Assembly (NCBI GenBank): GCA_965645245.1
Contig: OZ287068.1
Coordinates: 3,534,001-3,598,000, forward strand
DNA: 64,000 nucleotides
Direction of reading: 5' to 3'
Source of the DNA: Massalongia carnosa
Lineage: Eukaryota
A model generated the notes under the pieces. It had not been told where the DNA came from. It did not search any database and saw only the letters and a list, made by a program, of their open reading frames with translations. The position numbers were made by a program, and so were the translations under genes. How positions within the stretch are numbered: position 1 is the stretch's first letter; each line of letters opens with the position of its first letter. Shown here piece after piece: positions 1-58,931 of the stretch.

Positions 1-634
1 AAATGAGGAAAATGGGAAAGGGGTGATGACGCTCTTGCTTGAGAAGCGCGGGGCAGATGTGATGATTACGGAAGAGGTGGTGAAGGCAGCGGCGGGAAAT
101 GAGGAAAATGGGAAAGAGGTGATGACGCTCTTGCTTGAGCAGCGCGGGGCAGATGTGATGATTACGGAAGAGGTGGTGAAGGCAGCTGCGACATGCGGGC
201 AAGATGGGGTCTTAAAAATAATCGAAGAAAAGTTTAAGATCTCCCCTTCTAAAGAAGAATGGTCGATCGCCCAGTTTTATAACGCAGCAAAATTTGGAAA
301 GGCGGATACAATCCAGAAACTACTAGCAGAAGGGGTCAAACCTGATCTAAAAAATTCTCGGCATGTGTCTCCACTTTGGATTTCCGCAGCAAATGGCCAC
401 CTTAGAGTAGTTCAACTACTACTTCGTACTAAAATTGTCGACGTCAATGCGAAGAGTATATATGGGCGGCCTCCTATCTTTTGGGCAGCAGCAGAAGGTA
501 ACGAAAATATCGTGAGACTATTGCTGACAGCAGGGGCAGATCGTACTCTCGAAGATATAGATGGAAAAACTCCGCTGTCGGTGGCCAAGAAAAATGGACA
601 TGACAAGATTGCAAAAATGTTGTCTGGTGGGTAA
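1..634 (+). CDS. 3' end of NLR-type gene (32-aa ITEEVVKAAA repeats + ankyrin repeats), paralog of the gene at 22793-25743; truncated by window start
   Basis: 96-bp repeat unit (gtgatgacgctc at 23 and 119), then ankyrin motifs (SPLWISAANGHLRVVQLLL, PPIFWAAAEGNENIVRLLL, TPLSVAKKNGHDKIAKML). Near-identical to the reverse complement of 22793-23426. Confidence 0.9.
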   Translation, partial: NEENGKGVMTLLLEKRGADVMITEEVVKAAAGNEENGKEVMTLLLEQRGADVMITEEVVKAAATCGQDGVLKIIEEKFKISPSKEEWSIAQFYNAAKFGKADTIQKLLAEGVKPDLKNSRHVSPLWISAANGHLRVVQLLLRTKIVDVNAKSIYGRPPIFWAAAEGNENIVRLLLTAGADRTLEDIDGKTPLSVAKKNGHDKIAKMLSGG

Positions 635-20580: not shown

Positions 20581-23426
20581 CAGTGTCAAAATGCTGATCG
20601 AAGAAACTAAGATTTGAGCGTGGCAAATTTCTTGTGCGAGGTACACTTTCCGTATTTCGCATTTCGCACCAGGATTCTGTAAGTTTCAAAACGCTTAACG
20701 CCATCCCTTGTAGGAGCTGCGTGGCTTGTTTCTCTCCCTCTCTTCACTCTTGTTGCTAATTGACGAGGTTGTTGACATGACCTCATGCAACGTGCTTTTC
20801 GCCTCATCCGCCTCATCCGCCACGGCATTAAGTCTATACCTAATTGGGTAATCTTATCCTGAGCTTTGCCGTTGCCCCTTGATTGTCACAGTTGATTAGT
20901 ATCAACGCCACATTCAATATCAAGCGCTTAGCTATGAAAGCTTAAGCAAGTATCATCGAGATACTTCTATATGGCAATATGAGTCAGAGAGTAAGCTGGA
21001 CATTACCAATCATGGGTAATACGATGAACTCGGAGGAGTCATTGCAAATAGGAGGAATTGAGGTAGTCTCAACTTCTATATAATAGCTGTATCTTCTCTC
21101 TGTAAATTAGCTAGTCAGTCATTACATAGTTTAGCACTTCAAGCCTAATTCTAGTCTGTCTCTCACCTAATTTACTGCGTTGAGAGTCTTAGAGAAAGCT
21201 GGTTGATCATTCCAGAACCCAATCTAACCAACAACTCTGCCTTGTCTCTTCTTCTCTCATCCTCTCTCATCCTTTCTCGTCTTATCCTCCCACCCCCCTA
21301 AACATATCAACTCTCCCACGCCATCGTATCCTAACTTCTCAACGTAGTCAACAGGCACTGAGATGCAACCATGATTCTTGTCCAAATCCAGAAGCTGATC
21401 CTTATTATGTTTCGTTGAGCTCGCTCTTGGGTTTGATGAGTATCAAAGCTGAGAACTGTGCTCGACATGGTTGATATGATATGCGGTGGTCGAGAAGTGA
21501 ATCATGATGACTGCAGAGCGACTGCGGCCGATTGAGCTGATTGCAAAGCGAATGAGAGGTACCGAAATCTTTATTATGAGTAGCAGGTGTTCGTAGTCCT
21601 TCACTTGTTCGACATCCTGTTGACTGATGTGTTGTCGCAGGTGAATCGATATCATAACATGGCTCAGGAATGACAAACCATGTGGCTGCTGCGAATGTAG
21701 CTGGGGCCGGACGGAGCAGATAAAACGGACGGAGCAGATGACGCAGACTGAACAATTGAAATCGCAGGAGAGATAGGTGAGCTAAGCTGAGCAGCCTATG
21801 AGAGAGCGTGTCGGGGCGAATGAGACGAATTCATAAGATGACTGGAAAGGTGCAGTTGCTGCGAATGAGACAGCTGAAGTTTCTAGTATGTTCACGATGA
21901 GACACAATGTACCAACGTTAGTATGAGAATATTTATACACAAGGTATCTTATGGGATCTTTCTTTCATGAGGAAGCAATGTGTGTGGGGCAGTATTGAAT
22001 GTGATTCAAAAAGTAGTGCAACCTGCTTGTTAGCTTGGTAGGCGTTGAAGCCAGGCAGAAAGGCGTAAAGAGCGAAGAAGTTCTTCATCTCCCATATCGG
22101 GACCTGCTTAACTTTTCCAGCTCCTGATTCAGGAGCTGAAAAGCACTCGTCACACATAGCTGATCAACAGGAGAGACAGGACTGTCCAACGACAGAGTCT
22201 AGACCCTTTGCTCATCTTCTGAAATAGCTGCCTTCTCTTGCCATGTTTCAATCAGATGTGCAGCTCGTCGACTGAAGATCAAGAAGGGATTCGTGTCATG
22301 CATAATATGAACCTCAACGACAAATAATCGTTCAGTTGAATTGTCGAAATGAAGGATAGCTTTCCTTCACATCGAACTCTCTGACGTGATATGATCAAGG
22401 TCAAATGCGCATTTGCGTCTGATATTGAAATCGATTGTCTTTCAGTCTTTCAGTCTTGTTGTCTTGCTTCATCTCAGAGCCGCATTCGTTGCGTATAACC
22501 GAATATGGACTTTTTTCCATCTCTCTCTTCATGTCATCGGCCTGAGCCGGTCACAAGGCTTATCATCTGTTTGAAGGGCGATAGACATTTTCTGTTGTAC
22601 AAGCATCAATAAGTGTCAGAAGTTCAGCCATCACGGTGCGAGCAAATGAGACAGATCAAGCATAATTGAACTTTTCTAACAGGATCTCTAGATACTCTGT
22701 CGCTTCTCAAGACGACGTATCATTATGAAGGAGATCGTCACCGAAACCCGATAAACAATGAAGAAGCTTCTCTCAACTGGGCCATTGCATTTTTACCCAC
22801 CAGACAACATTTTTGCAATCTTGTCATGTCCATTTTTCTTGGCCACCAACAGCGGAGTTTTTCCATCTATATCTTCGAGAGTACGATCTGCCCCTGCTGT
22901 CAGCAATAGTCTCACGATATTTTCGTTACCTTCTGCTGCTGCCCAAAAGATAGGAGGCCGCCCAGATATACTCTTCGCATTGACGTCGACAATTTTAGTA
23001 CGAAGTAGTAGTTGAACCACTCTAAGGTGGCCTTTTGCTGCGGAAATCCAAAGTGGAGACACATGCCGAGAAGTTTTTAGATCAGGTTTGACCCCTTCTG
23101 CTAGTAGTTTTTGGATTGTATCCGCCTTTCCAAATTTTGCTGCGTTATAAAACTGGGCGATCGACCATTCTTCTTTAGAAGGGGATATCTTAAACTTTTC
23201 TTCGATTATTTTTAAGACCCCATCTTGCCCGCATGTCGCAGCTGCCTTCACCACCTCTTCTGTAATCGTTACATCTGCCCCGCGCTGCTCAAGCAAGAAC
23301 GTCATCACCTCTTTTCCACTTCCTTCATTCCCTGCCGCTGCCTTCACCACCTCTTCCGTAATCATCACATCTGCCCCGCGCTGCTCAAGCAAGAGCGTCA
23401 TCACCTCTTTCCCATTCCAGAAATTT
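20581..23426. repeat. Right arm of inverted segmental duplication (partner 1-2657)
   Basis: Reverse complement of 1-2657 apart from arm-specific solo LTRs and scattered SNPs. Confidence 0.93.
20751..21233. mobile_element. Solo LTR (483 bp), present only in the right arm
   Basis: TGTTG...CAACA, TSD actct; empty site at ~2488-2492 in the left arm. Confidence 0.9.
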
Positions 23427-25743
23427 CCCGCCGCTGCCTTCACCACCTCTTCCGTAATCATCACATCTGCCCCGCGCTGCTCAAGCAAGAGCGTCATCAC
23501 CTTTTTCCCTCCGAATCCCGCCGCTGCCGTCACCACCTCTTCTGATATTATCGTAAGCTTATTTTTCAGCAAGATCGAAACTACATCACAACTACCATAT
23601 TTAACAGCAATTTCCAAAGGTGTCCGACCCTGAGTGTTCACTATGTTGTCTCCGAAATTTGCCCAGATTCTTGCAATTTCCTGCAAATCAAAACAGGAGG
23701 CAACAAAGAGAGCTCTGCCCTCTTTAGCGCTAGTGTCTTCCAATTTATCCCTTAGTTCCGATTCAATCGAGTAATCTTCAAGCCGTTCCTTAATCAGGCT
23801 AGCCCATACATCAGCAGCGGATCCTGAGTCCGATTCGTTGGAGAGAAAATGACAAAGGAGGTCGTTAAGCACATCGGCAGTCCTTATTTTAGCTGTTAGC
23901 TGACAATGCGGAGCCCAGTAGACAGTCGAGTAGTGTCTAAGGTCATGTGAAAGAGTTGAGTTTAATGAATCTTGTTCGTATTTAGAAAGAAGTCTTTTTG
24001 TTGTTGGGTTGTCGGCAGCACTTAGTACATCTAAGAGACAAGTCTCAGCAGCCAGGGCGTTTGTCGCTTCTTTAGTATATTCTGGCCGCTTCTCCAAAAA
24101 TTCTCTCACCGACAGATGGGCAAATCGAAACATCGAGCGTTGAATCGAAAACAACCATGTTAGAGCACATCTCCAAAATATGCTCTTTCGTCAGCTGGCT
24201 GAACTGTCGCCGTGGAGTCGTTGATATTGCCGCGAGAAATTCTCTAGATGTCGGCTTTCTCTGGGCGCAGAGGAGCCAGCTGAAAGCGTTGATAGTCACT
24301 TCGCGATCGGCGTTTGCTGAGGTTTTGGTCAACTTCTCGTATAGATCAAGATAAAGGTCTTCCAGCTTTGGTGGCAGTTGCCCGAGCCTTTCCCGAATAG
24401 CTTCCTCAGTCCGAGCGCTGCATAAGCTTTGCAGTTGGAGGCTAGCCCACAGGAACCTGGTGATCACATTAGTGGGGCATAAACATTGCTCGCATTGCTG
24501 GACAGTACTGACATCCCATCAGCGTTTTTTGTGACCTGTTCAATAATCTCGATCTTCAACTTCTCCTTGTTGGTGCTTAAAGCTAGTAGCCTCTTCCTCT
24601 TGATAAGGTTGTCGGTCTCAGCGGTAATAAATGACGAGATATCATCCTTGTTCATTCCAGATGAGAGCTCAAGATTAGGATAGTCTCGTAAAGACAAAAC
24701 AATATCTTGATCATCTCGACTCGAAACAAAGATCTTCACCAAGCTTGAGGACTCTTGAAGAATTGATTGTAAGGTTTCCAAAAGAACTGTCCGTTTCTCT
24801 GGGTCGCACTCGTCAAGCGCATCGATCACAATGGTTGTTAATTGATAAGACTTGGTAAGCTGGAGGATTAGTAGACGACTCTCATTTATACCTAATGATT
24901 CCGAGGCGGATCCCTCTATATCTCGTTTCTTGTAAGCTGCCACCGTTGGAGGGAGTAGAGGGTGTCCCGGTTGAGGACTAGACAATTGCCGTGCGATAGT
25001 CGCTACGATTGCATCAGGGTTTGAACGCGCAGGTTCAGCGGTGTTTCGTGAACAGTAGGAAAAGACTGGAGCTGGGCTTTGGCCATTATCGAAGGCTTTT
25101 TTGGCATCTTCAATCACAATAGATCTATGTTAACCGTAAGCATTTATCTTTCCGAGATAGCTGTACAGTACTCACACCAGCTTGCTCTTCCCAGAACCTG
25201 GAATCCCATGAAGCCACAAGATAGAAGATACACTTTCTTTCTTCCACGTTTTGAAAACTGGATTCGAAAGCAGCCATTGTCTAGTACCCTGTAACACTTC
25301 TTCATTGATTTGCTTATGATGTTGTCTATATGGTACCGGGGACATCCAGTCTAGAATCTTATTTCTATTTGATGCTAAGGCTCATGAGTTGAGGCTCTGA
25401 TGTTGATTTTAACAACTTACACTCAATACGCTTGAGACGTCTTTTCAAGTCCTTGCGTTGATTTATTTGTTCTAGGTTCATTAGTAAGAATTCAGAAAAT
25501 AGAAGTCCTATCGAGTCACAGGACGCTATATCATTGCGAATGGCGACTTGCCTGGATATTGAACAATATTGTTTGTCTGAGAGCCTAATCAGGATTTAGC
25601 ATAAGCTCAATATCGATGTGAACAGGACGCAAACCAATCACTTTCGCATAGCCTGAGACGTCACCGATCACAACGCCTTGGTTGCCAGAAATCGTGCCAA
25701 AATCCTTCGTGCCTGTAGAGACTACTGGCGTGTTACCGGCCAT
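22793..25743 (-). CDS. Fungal NLR: short N-terminal putative amyloid motif - NACHT - 32-aa repeats - ankyrin repeats; multi-exon, one frameshift at ~24130
   Basis: ATG 25743 MAGNTPVVSTGTKDFGTISGNQGVVIGDVSG; ILDWMSPVPY; Walker A WLHGIPGSGKSKL (~25155-25200); Walker B IVIDALDEC; KIFVSSR; ADGM/FLWASLQ split by an intron; FRFAHLSVREFL; C-terminal repeats. Confidence 0.88.
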
Positions 25744-26083
25744 TGCTGCGTCGGAAGATTGTAGACATTAGAGCTCGGAGCTATATTGAATAAGACTTGA
25801 AAACCATTACCTTTACCGTGCTCAGGACCGCACCTACTCTAGGCTCGGCCGGAAACTCGACGCCCAAGACTTTCTAAAAGCACTGTTCATCTCTAAGTAT
25901 AAATATATGCACGGACTCACCGATGGAGGCCCCCCCGCCATCATGCGGGATAGATGGCTGATAGAGCCAAGGCTATGCACGTGCTGAAGCGCCTGGTCTC
26001 TCCATGCAGGCGGTATCACAATTATCTCGCATAAGTTATAGTGCTAAATTTGAAGCACGACCCCTCTGTAGTATTGCGCCAGC

Positions 26084-27634
26084 ATGGCCGAACCGTACGG
26101 ATTAGGCGACCCCCTCTTTGATTCTCCAGACGCGAATATAGAGTACGCACCAGATGTCATTTCTCGTCCGGGTTGCTTTGTATTGACCAAACAGTATTGT
26201 CTTCGTCCACGGGCTCGGCGGCGACATTGTGAAAACTTGGACATGGGAGGGTCGAGATAGATCGCTGTTGTGGCCGCAAGATCTCTTACCTAAAGCCTGC
26301 CCAACAGCTCGCATCCTTTCTTTTGGGTAAAATGCGGACTTTGCTCACTTCTATCCGTTTGTTGCACCGAAATTCATCCCGGAACATTTGACTATTGATG
26401 ATCACGCGACTGCAATGTTCCAGAGCCTAATCGGTCTCCGCGAGAAACCAAAACTGTAGGAATCGGCGCACCCCTACCCTTTCCACTAGAAATATGCTAA
26501 TAGGATGTCTATGTCTAGGCTGAACGGCCGATTATTTTCGTCTCGCACAGCCTAGGGGGTCTCGTGTGCGCCAATGCGTTGTCAAGGCACAATGGTACCG
26601 ACATTGCTAGCACTACCCTCGTAGAGAGAACGATTGGAGTCGTCTTCCTTGGTGTTATGATCTACCTAGAGACAAGTCATAGGGACACTAGAAACGAATA
26701 CAATCAAGATGAAGAAGAAAAGATCAATTGAAAGACAAATCTCGCTCCTATATAGTCCAGCGGCCCCTAGCCCTCGACCGACTCGTGGAAGGATCTAGAA
26801 GGTTCGAGCATTGACCAGCTATGGAAACCGTGAATGCCGCGATGAGTCCAGCGCGCACACGCGATCCCGTGACTTCGGCTTGTGGCTTGTTCCGCTCCAG
26901 TCTACCGAAGTAGTGCCGAGTAGAACCGTGACACTTGGAACGCCCTTTGAGGGATCGTCAAAAGCGAAATGGGGAAGCAGGGCTCTACAGATACTGGGCT
27001 GGATAAGCACCACGCATAAGCAGGATATAAAGGATCTTGAAGAGCGTTCGGCAAAGCTCATCAGCGTTAACGAGGCCTTTCAGAAATTCCTGAAAGCACG
27101 GGATCGTTCAGAATCAAGAGAATTTGTGGAAGTAGCTTGCTTCTTTGAACAGTCTGCTATGTACAAGTGAGGGACGAAGATGGGGTTTATCGTGCCCAAG
27201 GAATCGGCTTGCCTGCCTGGTATCGATCCACAGTCGATCCAGGCGAATCATGTTGATATGTGCAAGTTTGAGGATGAAGACCGAGAGGGATACAAGAGAA
27301 TTTCACAAAAGTTGGTTCAATGGATATCGGATCTTGATAGTCGATCCAAGGGGTCTGGAGAGGATCGCCAGGTCTGACATCTCTTTCGCTCGCTTGAAGT
27401 TAGCTGAAAATCAACAGAAACATTCGGTTCGTATGGGCGATGTTAACTTTAGGGACAAAATCGATAACAATCGAGGTGTGATTATGGGTCATGCAAACAG
27501 TACGGCCACAGACGGGGTTAGGATAACTGGAAGTGATATCACTGTAATGATCACCTATCCTTCGATAGCGATGTAAAAGCTGATAGAACATGAAGAATAC
27601 TTATCATGGCATTAACCCAAAAGGCTCTGTGTAG
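26084..27634 (+). pseudogene. SesB-like (PGAP1/SERAC1-type) alpha/beta hydrolase with C-terminal putative amyloid motif; disrupted
   Basis: DIVFVHGLGG, WPQDLLP..ARILSFG*NAD, RPIIFVSHSLGGLV (nucleophile elbow), GVVFLG|TPFEGS, IVPKESA, ANHVDMCKF. Lesions: 1-nt deletion ~26110, TAA ~26328, solo LTR, TGA 27168. Tail VNFRDKIDNNRGVIMGHANS. Confidence 0.88.
26653..26933. mobile_element. Solo LTR (281 bp) inside the hydrolase gene
   Basis: TGTTA...TGACA, TSD cttgg; removal restores FLGTPF. Confidence 0.92.
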
Positions 27635-28123
27635 ACCGAGGGATAGGCAATGGCGGAACTACTAGTCAACATTGCGGAGTCATTCTAGGAAAATATTCAG
27701 GAACATGAAATAATCAATTGACTTTTTGACGTCTTTCAAAACAATGTTTTTTTGCGCAGTCATCAGCTTCGGGTGAAAGTTGACTCCTTGTGAGACGTGA
27801 AGAGCTCGCATGACAAGAGTTTCAAGCTTCAAATATGCCGCAGCTAGAAGGGGCCTCTTAGCAGAGAATGCTTATCCAACTTATGTCCGGTCTCTGAATC
27901 CTGCCCTTGCTTCCGTAAGCACTTCAGAACAAAAGTCTGACAAGATCTTAAATCATTATTGAATGAATAAGCATCTTACTTCATTGAGCTACGTAGATGC
28001 AATGATGGAGATTTTCAAAGACGTACAATCAGGGCTTACGCCTGTCGAGCCTTTGATAAAGTACGCTAAAATTGTAAAGCGATTGAGCATCACAATCGAC
28101 GACATAGCTGAAGATGAGACGAG

Positions 28124-28452
28124 TGTTAAATGGTGAGGCTACCATCGGTTAGATGGTTAGGCTACCATCAATATAGGCATCCATCGTGAGTCTCACGGGT
28201 GCCTGCCAGGCATCTATAAGAGGTGCCTAATAGGCAGTTATGAGGTGCCTAACAGGCAGCTATGGAGGTGCCTAACAGGCAGCTATGGAGGTGCCTAACA
28301 GGCAGCTATGGAGGTGCCTAACAGCAGCTATGGGAGGCCTACAGCATTACTGTTATATGACTGCTATAAAAGCAGATAGATAGCCCACATAGATAATTAC
28401 CTTCAATGACAATCATGCTATTATACCTACACGTGAATTTTACTATTCATCA
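28124..28452 (+). mobile_element. Solo LTR of the Copia 1 family (329 bp) with extra ~23-bp tandem units
   Basis: Matches 8722-9005; TSD acgag; more ggaggtgcctaacaggcagctat units than the 8722 copy. Confidence 0.92.
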
Positions 28453-58689: not shown

Positions 58690-58931
58690 TTTCACGGTTT
58701 TACTCGACACTACTTCGGTACCAGACTATCGAACTAGCTACTTCGGATCTAACTCTCGAGCTCGAGTTTAGGCTGACATAAGCGGAATAAGCTGCGGTTG
58801 AGTCGGTTGAGGACTAGTGGCCGCTGGACTATATAGAGGCGAGATTTGTCTTTCGATTTTGCTTTTCTTCTTTATCTTGATTGTTTTCGTTTCTAGTATC
58901 CCTATAGACTAGATCTAGGTAGACAATAACA
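58690..58931. mobile_element. Solo LTR (242 bp) in Gypsy 3 protease
   Basis: TSD gtagg; ends ..TAACA; removal restores the frame DSIVGVLRIERKHKF. Confidence 0.75.

Follow-up and report, generated by a model that had tools for sequence, protein, structure and literature searches.

A stretch of 64,000 nucleotides from Massalongia carnosa (contig OZ287068.1 of assembly GCA_965645245.1, positions 3,534,001 to 3,598,000 of the forward strand), here called the window and numbered from its first letter, carries two divergent genes whose products evidently share a homologous motif at opposite ends. One gene, on the minus strand with its ATG at 25743, encodes a NOD-like receptor (NLR) with the motif at its N-terminus. 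The other, on the plus strand with its ATG at 26084, encodes a SesB-like alpha/beta-hydrolase with the motif at its C-terminus. The two start codons lie head to head, separated by 340 bp, as an initial annotation of this DNA had described. We favor the reading, with a probability of roughly 0.6, that filamentous ascomycetes have a conserved module of two genes, in which the NLR motif would activate the lipase by amyloid templating, and that this locus is one copy of it in decay. The window copy itself is a relic, and both of its genes are broken.

The common origin of the two termini is most evident when families of sequences are compared. Alignment of an NLR-side profile (12 sequences) with an effector-side profile (10 sequences) by hhalign gave a probability of 95% and a score of 40.8, which none of 300 column-shuffled comparisons reached (9.9 ± 2.7, maximum 21.4); on larger alignments the E-value was 4.7e-5 over 42 columns. 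Hidden Markov models (HMMs) built from one side only also recover the opposite side. Among the 1543 six-frame open reading frames (ORFs) of the window, the best non-self match of the effector-only HMM is the ORF of NLR exon 1 (13.8 bits, E = 0.0036), and the best non-self match of the NLR-only HMM is the hydrolase tail exon (12.7 bits, E = 0.0077). Reciprocal matches of the same kind are found in L001, an independent metagenome contig described below (E = 0.012 and 0.0024), whose own pair of motifs has 16 identities by hand count. For the window pair taken singly, the Smith-Waterman score is 38 (p = 0.013, 5000 shuffles). The shared motif proposed in the initial annotation is therefore upheld by the profile comparison, and the alignment of the two termini drawn there was reproduced by MAFFT unaided.

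Other fungi have kept the motif, both on NLRs and on hydrolases. A joint profile of 42 positions (A1), built from six tails and two NLR exons and scored against 1.84 billion protein representatives, found 42 proteins at E <= 1e-3. By inspection these comprise 31 hydrolase tails, 9 NLR N-termini and 2 false positives (P0131 and P0165, which are unrelated repeat proteins). Five tails at 78-87% identity were obtained in a word-based search, located in the intact hydrolases P0003, P0005 and P0006 and in fragments; the source of P0005 is Phaeosphaeriaceae sp. PMI808 (Pleosporales). An exact-word search with NLR exon 1 returned a single near-identical ORF, P0001. More distant full-length alpha/beta-hydrolases with a C-terminal motif are P0146, P0155 and P0162, while P0168, which has the motif and no Pfam family at E <= 0.01, was placed by the A2 alignment; overall, these four are 33-50% identical to P0006. 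The only full-length protein seen on the NLR side, P0161, is of the NACHT-ankyrin kind and consists of the motif, an S-Q-T-N-Y... segment, and then NACHT, a winged helix and ankyrin repeats.

Both the placement and the sequence of the motif are constrained. On the NLR side it begins at an invariant Met 1 (12 of 12 sequences), and the hydrolase tails end 5-33 residues past it. The motif is about 45 residues long. All 12 NLR-side sequences and 35 of the 38 effector-side ones contain the core N-x-G-[VAI]-[VIL]-x-G, with the core Asn in 12/12 and 32/35, respectively. The residue after the core is Asp in all 12 NLRs and His (21/35) or Asn (7/35) in the lipases. Compared pairwise, five diverged hydrolases are as alike in the tail core (39% identity) as in the catalytic domain (40%), with 6% in the linker between them; to judge from these sequences, the hydrolase tail is a selected module. 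The composition of the motif is biased toward Gly (14-19%), Val (10-15%), Ile (8-9%) and Asn (5-10%), with Pro and Leu at about 1% or less. This bias agrees with the one given for amyloid signaling motifs in the relevant portion of bioRxiv 10.1101/2020.01.06.895854, except for a low content of Gln.

Homologues of the hydrolase match Abhydrolase_6, DUF676 and PGAP1-type models, mostly below the curated cut-offs. Abhydrolase_6 is matched at E <= 0.01 by P0003, P0006, P0146, P0155 and P0162, and at E <= 10 by 7 of 39 members. Pfam has no dedicated model of the SesB domain, and the term SesB-like refers here to the fold and the nucleophile elbow. This elbow, H-S-L-G-G, is kept in the window gene and in P0003, P0005, P0006, P0146 and P0162.

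The divergent pair, which the initial annotation knew from this locus, recurs elsewhere. A metagenome scan seeded only with patterns from the hydrolase catalytic domain returned eight loci. One of them, L001 (2984 nt), encodes a hydrolase 84% identical to P0006. Upstream of this gene's start codon and on the other strand are the motif exons of an NLR, with 283 bp between the two start codons. The layout, the mini-exons and the canonical splice sites all correspond: the NLR has a 109-nt exon 1 as in the window, an intron that has GTGAGC as donor, TGCTAAC as branch site and AG as acceptor, and an exon 2 of 30 nt with the canonical donor GTAAGT behind it, and the hydrolase tail contains the same two introns as that of the window.

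These genes have the features of a known functional class, in which the motif lies at the extreme N-terminus of an NLR that has no effector domain and a homologous motif lies at the C-terminus of an effector, behind a linker. By analogy with NWD2/HET-S, HET-eN/SesA/SesB and PNT1/HELLP/SBP, we infer amyloid formation, templating and lipase activation for the present pair, with an HRAM-type NLR/effector system as the paradigm. Ligand-induced oligomerization of the NLR would bring its N-terminal motifs together, and the gathered motifs would adopt a cross-beta fold. This fold would then template the lipase tail, and the templated lipase would aggregate and so be activated or relocated as a cell-death or defense effector. 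Of the NLR-effector amyloid-signaling system put forward in the initial annotation, the homologous termini, the conserved family and the pairing in L001 stand, but the copy in the window does not work as a system, since its NLR and its hydrolase are both broken. Prediction of a complex between two NLR exon-1 peptides and one tail peptide scored 0.01, which provides no answer and counts neither way.

Several observations weigh against this reading. The amyloid mechanism is argued from architecture and analogy, and the low content of Gln is unusual for amyloid signaling motifs. Most family members are short ORFs, and a single organism name, Phaeosphaeriaceae sp. PMI808, is attached to a tail-bearing protein. 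The window pair alone is only weakly similar, and its 11 identities compare with 12-13 for cross-pairs with L001 (hand counts). An HMM built from tails only gives the NLR exon 6.7 bits (E = 0.43), although the exon ranks first of 1542 other six-frame ORFs. Moreover, both sets of sequences were collected with one mixed profile, and their likeness may be somewhat inflated. Among loci with a clear tail motif, only three allowed adjacency to be examined, and it holds in two, the window and L001. In the third, L002 (5.2 kb), the hydrolase is 49% identical and has a recognizable tail, and no NLR was found in the 1.1 kb upstream or 3.1 kb downstream of it. Finally, P0155 and P0168 lack the nucleophile Ser and have Asp in the elbow (H-D-L-G-G and R-D-L-G-G; A2 columns ~170-175). 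Catalysis is therefore not universal in the family, and these two proteins may be catalytically dead yet have kept the tail motif.

Four to five families of fungal NLR-associated amyloid motifs are recognized (HRAM, sigma, PP and PUASM 1-2). The relatives of PP are RHIM in animals and BASS3 in bacteria. A core of G-phi-Q-phi-G, where phi is a hydrophobic residue, is common to PP, RHIM and BASS3 (bioRxiv 10.1101/2020.01.06.895854; PMC7885112), and the PP consensus is F-x-G-x-(x)-N-x-G-L-Q-L-x-G-x-N-x-G-x-L (PMC3321046); these and the other motif descriptions below follow the cited papers. As in PP systems, the present motif occurs on an NLR N-terminus and a SesB-type lipase C-terminus encoded by clustered genes, and it has an Asn flank and two Gly residues around a three-residue core with hydrophobic residues at positions 1 and 3. 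Unlike in PP, the central Gln is replaced by Val, Ile or Leu. The initial annotation had described the motif as PP-like in spacing with a hydrophobic residue in place of Gln, and this description fits 47 of 47 cores. Also unlike the PP cluster, neither the window nor L001 showed a third partner of the HeLo-like type.

It could be argued that the motif is a divergent PP subfamily whose mechanism is that of the SBP lipase in the hellp-sbp-pnt1 cluster, with the Gln replaced and nothing new in kind. The effector type is the same, since PP is also borne by a lipase, CgSBP (PMC7885112; PMC3321046). The N-x-G-phi-?-phi-G spacing is identical, and an aromatic residue precedes the core by 8-9 positions, a feature shared with the PP consensus, which starts with F. 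However, the signature G-phi-Q-phi-G core is found in 0 of 50 family members, and the conserved region spans about 45 residues versus 17-24 in PP. The pseudopalindrome of PP is preserved only in its upstream half, where the aromatic residue and N-x-G are conserved, whereas the downstream G-x-N-x-G half is not: the sequence here is D-[VAI]-S-G in the NLRs and H-A-x-x in the lipases, which is not palindromic. The PP model of Pfam also goes unmatched (see below). On balance, we regard membership in PP as unlikely.

Scoring against known profiles, which the initial annotation had called for, gave no Pfam match of the motif to PP, sigma or HET-s models. PF17046 (named 'Ses_B' but the PP model according to PMC12261475), PF17106 (sigma) and PF11558 and PF17108 (HET-s) were not matched by seven short motif sequences at E <= 10 and are not among the 25 families listed, of 37, for 39 members, and the PF17046, PF17106 and HET-s models had no match to the window exons at E <= 1, with the qualification that HMMER filters drop most weak matches and so limit these negatives. 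Of the Pfam models, DUF7261 alone gives a signal on the motif, and a weak one; it occurs in 4 of 39 members and is matched below the cut-off by the NLR-side sequences P0147 and P0152 (E = 0.027-0.074). Twelve hexa- and pentapeptide strings from the motif are absent from those supplements of PMC9815663 that were searched, and the motif may still be among the unnamed classes of that paper, such as NLR34. A comparison of the motif profile with the PDB gave only matches at chance level (E >= 0.82), none of them to an amyloid entry.

The other recognized families resemble the motif in part. Sigma consists of three repeats of G-x-G-x-Q-F-N or G-G-T-Q-N-I-N-T (PMC3321046). The sigma system het-eN/sesA/sesB of Nectria haematococca likewise combines a SesB-type hydrolase effector with a NACHT-ankyrin NLR, and both partners carry a motif of about 40 residues at full length. 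Sigma submotifs are absent from the alignments of the window family, which also show no internal repeat and no PF17106 match. HRAM is a 21-residue unit with G19 and with hydrophobic positions 5, 8, 10, 16 and 18, doubled on HeLo proteins (PMC4518210), and the segment phi-x-phi-G-[DNH]-phi of the present motif resembles HRAM positions 16-21. By eye, though, HRAM positions 5 and 8 (hydrophobic) and 15 (basic) are unmatched, and in place of a motif doubled on the effector and single on the NLR there is a single long motif on both sides, with a hydrolase as the effector. PUASM, F-x-G-x-G-x-Q-x-x-G-x-G-x-F, is described for PNP_UDP effectors only (PMC9815663; Wojciechowski et al. 2022) and is similarly tied to one type of enzymatic effector, on NACHT NLRs of Pezizomycotina. 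The PUASM pattern is absent from our alignments, and PNP_UDP is found in 0 of 7 full-length effector-side proteins (P0003, P0005, P0006, P0146, P0155, P0162 and P0168).

We therefore treat the sequences as an unnamed family, so far confined to SesB-like hydrolases on the effector side, because they have PP/RHIM spacing without the Gln and are about twice as long as PP. By analogy, the motif is likely an unnamed lipase-specific variant of the NLR-associated amyloid signaling motifs.

An alternative that we consider somewhat less probable than a PP subfamily holds that the motif is homologous on both proteins but is not amyloid, serving instead as a segment for soluble heterotypic docking or as a targeting signal that the two proteins have in common. 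The amyloid step is assigned to this motif by analogy, Gln is scarce, and the motif is longer than most amyloid signaling motifs. A comparison of each side with itself by hhalign gave no off-diagonal match, and hence no internal repeat or solenoid-like periodicity was detected; the idea of a solenoid of three phi-x-phi-G units was dropped on this result. Conversely, in the literature cited here every previously studied case of the same architecture, which also places the two genes side by side, was interpreted as amyloid signaling, and several were shown to form fibrils or prions, and the composition, including the near absence of Pro and Leu, fits beta-arch motifs. A chance likeness of two low-complexity stretches, the NLR leader and the hydrolase tail, would accord with the p-value of 0.013 for the single pair and the 6.7 bits from the tail-only HMM, but it is very improbable, being contradicted by the shuffle test (0/300), in which the family-level comparison lies far beyond the null, by reciprocal best matches of the side-specific HMMs in two independent loci, and by the conserved arrangement and exon structure of L001.

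Under the favored reading of a decayed NLR-lipase amyloid module, the family appears to be a lipase-specific, hitherto undescribed form of a well-known signaling principle, and not a new kind of system. No principle would be changed, as the mechanism, if confirmed, is already known. If the reading is true, a further family tied to SesB-like lipases would be added to the catalogue of amyloid motifs and would provide a new training class for profile and machine-learning detectors. The family would also be a natural experiment on whether templating requires Gln in the RHIM/PP core, since Val or Ile stands there at unchanged spacing. A more specific proposal can be offered tentatively, at less than even odds. 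In this proposal, the motif of about 45 residues would define an unnamed lipase-specific amyloid family, derived from or convergent with the RHIM/PP core, in which an all-hydrophobic center replaces the Gln ladder. Its position on two 5′ mini-exons of the NLR would make it movable by intron recombination, and the window's chimeric NLR would preserve the trace of one such exchange.

On re-reading of the sequence, the coordinates and the spliced readings that the initial annotation gave for both termini proved correct. All NLR features lie on the minus strand. Exon 1 (25635..25743) starts with the initiator Met and accounts for 36 residues at the beginning of the motif, among them the core N-x-G-V-V-I-G-D. 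Intron 1 (25585..25634; 50 nt, GT..AG) is at the same position in L001. Exon 2 (25552..25584) is a 33-nt mini-exon for the S-Q-T-N-N... end of the motif, has a homologous exon in L001 and in P0161, and yields a product that aligns with the S-S-T-S-N-T-Y stretch of the hydrolase tails. The protein P0161 reads across the junction of exons 1 and 2 uninterrupted. Intron 2 (25472..25551) has a GCAAGT donor and contains a rearrangement breakpoint at 25515/25516. The same GCAAGT donor is present in the read-through ORFs P0148 and P0149, which points to a conserved GC-AG intron in one lineage, and the donor in L001 is GTAAGT. A model without intron 2, which runs directly into a NACHT_N-like frame, was rejected because exon 2 and its donor are supported by L001 and P0161.

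Downstream of intron 2 is an exon-3-like segment (25421..25471), homologous to the C-terminal end of the NACHT_N region in paralogous NLRs, and then the NLR body (22793..25420), with NACHT (NPHP3_N), a winged helix, four DUF7104 units and ankyrin repeats. In Pfam searches, NPHP3_N was matched at E = 8.5e-16 and GPIID_WHD at 21.6 bits (curated cut-off 27), together with four DUF7104 matches and Ank. The body, which was also aligned with P0009 by tblastn, has introns at 25375-25420 (putative), 25125-25175 and 24457-24512.

The NLR of the window appears to be chimeric. Its closest NACHT relatives are proteins of Helotiales at 70-81% identity (for example from Tricladium and Halenospora), with 81% to the NACHT of P0007, and nearly all of these relatives bear a NACHT_N domain (PF17100) of about 310 residues upstream. 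The exon-3-like segment aligns locally with P0009 residues 222-239 at a score of 49 (shuffles, mean 30.4, maximum 48), and upstream of this segment no significant homology to NACHT_N was found in the same frame against P0009. Contigs of four public sequencing runs (X1, X2, X3 and X5, from three studies), which represent close relatives of the locus, break at the corresponding place. On the hydrolase side, the match ends at 25516 in 4 of 4 runs and different sequence follows; this alternative continuation matches intron 2 of L001 and also the read-through ORF P0148 at its C-terminus. On the NACHT side, the match ends at 25515 or 25426. Among the run pieces listed, none bridges the window's own 25515/25516 junction.

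The simplest reading of these matches is that, a rearrangement within intron 2 has, in the window, fused the motif exons with the 3′ portion of a NACHT_N-clade paralogue, and that in related genomes these exons would precede another NLR body. The initial annotation had placed the motif on a NACHT-ankyrin NLR. Both the motif and such a body are indeed present, but the body, which belongs to the NACHT_N clade, does not appear to be the usual partner. The encoding of the NLR motif by two 5′ mini-exons hints at swapping of N-termini between NLR bodies. A second NLR 3′ end, with DUF7104 and ankyrin repeats, extends from the left edge of the window (2-631, plus strand) and is 78% identical to P0009. 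It is nearly identical to the C-terminus of the NLR starting at 25743, indicating that the genome holds close NLR paralogues.

The 340 bp between the divergent start codons (25744..26083) are presumably a shared promoter region. On its other side, along the plus strand, lies the catalytic part of the hydrolase pseudogene (26084..27371), which aligns in pieces at 87-93% identity with the intact homologue P0003 (tblastn). Intron 1 is at 26143-26194 (52 nt, GT..AG) and intron 2 at ~26453-26518. One X5 contig, from a run whose kind was guessed as DNA, lacks exactly 26143-26194, the predicted first intron, and therefore an intron-less form of the hydrolase exists somewhere in that sample. The tail exon (27418..27543) encodes the motif core N-x-G-V-I-M-G-H and V-R-I-T-G-S, and the tails of P0002-P0006 match it at 83-87% identity. 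It is followed by an intron (27544-27595) at the same position as in L001 and in the spliced proteins P0005 and P0006, and by a last exon (27596..27634) encoding N-T-Y-H-G-I-N-P... and a TAG stop, with the same continuation in L001, P0005 and P0006.

The hydrolase of the window is a pseudogene with four lesions: two stops, a frameshift and the insertion of a solo long terminal repeat (LTR). The initial annotation had noted that this copy is disrupted; damage to the NLR and its chimerism come in addition. The first lesion is an in-frame TAA at 26328..26330, where homologues have Tyr; all four runs have C at 26330, at 98-100% of depth. The second is a 1-nt deletion in an A-run (26444..26449), which shifts the frame before intron 2 and is seen as a change of frame between tblastn alignment segments. 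In each of the four runs an additional A follows 26444, at ~45% of depth in X1 and 78-100% in X2, X3 and X5.

The third lesion is a 281-bp insertion (26648..26938, element 26653-26933) with TG..CA ends and a 5-bp direct repeat, CTTGG, which splits the hydrolase between the V-V-F-L-G and T-P-F-E-G codons. By its sequence, this insertion is a solo LTR. All four runs join 26647 to 26934, a skip of 286 positions in which five letters fit both sides, and the element is highly repeated in the runs, with 5-50x depth in the bin 26620-26730. A related LTR copy is found at 58692-58931 beside a gypsy-like retrotransposon, with 86-93% identity over 162 bp. The fourth lesion is an in-frame TGA at 27168..27170, where homologues have Gly, which was recognized by comparison with P0003 and is not among the run differences listed. 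Since the runs carry the C at 26330, the extra A and the 26647-26934 joint, intact forms exist elsewhere. In the NLR body, a 2-nt deletion near 24128 breaks the frame, and the relative P0009 reads through at this place. The window thus offers a concrete example of an NLR-lipase module decaying in transposon-rich DNA.

Just past the hydrolase stop, an ORF at 27616-27705 (plus strand) is matched by the NLR-side motif HMM at 11.5 bits (E = 0.017). Its DNA weakly resembles exon 1 of L001 (p = 0.0065) but not exon 1 of the window, and the ORF may be left over from a further motif exon or be a product of chance. Closely downstream of the pair, tandem repeats with units of about 22 bp are visible by eye at 28130-28330.

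Most of the window consists of retrotransposons, so that the NLR-lipase pair sits in a transposon-rich island of fungal DNA. Copia-type elements (RVT_2, integrase), gypsy-type elements (RVT_1, RNase H, integrase) and other elements bearing reverse transcriptase occupy the stretches 3.3-7.2, 9.5-14, 16-19.6, 30.7-37.7, 41.7-48.4, 50.3-54.7 and 58.9-63.9 kb.

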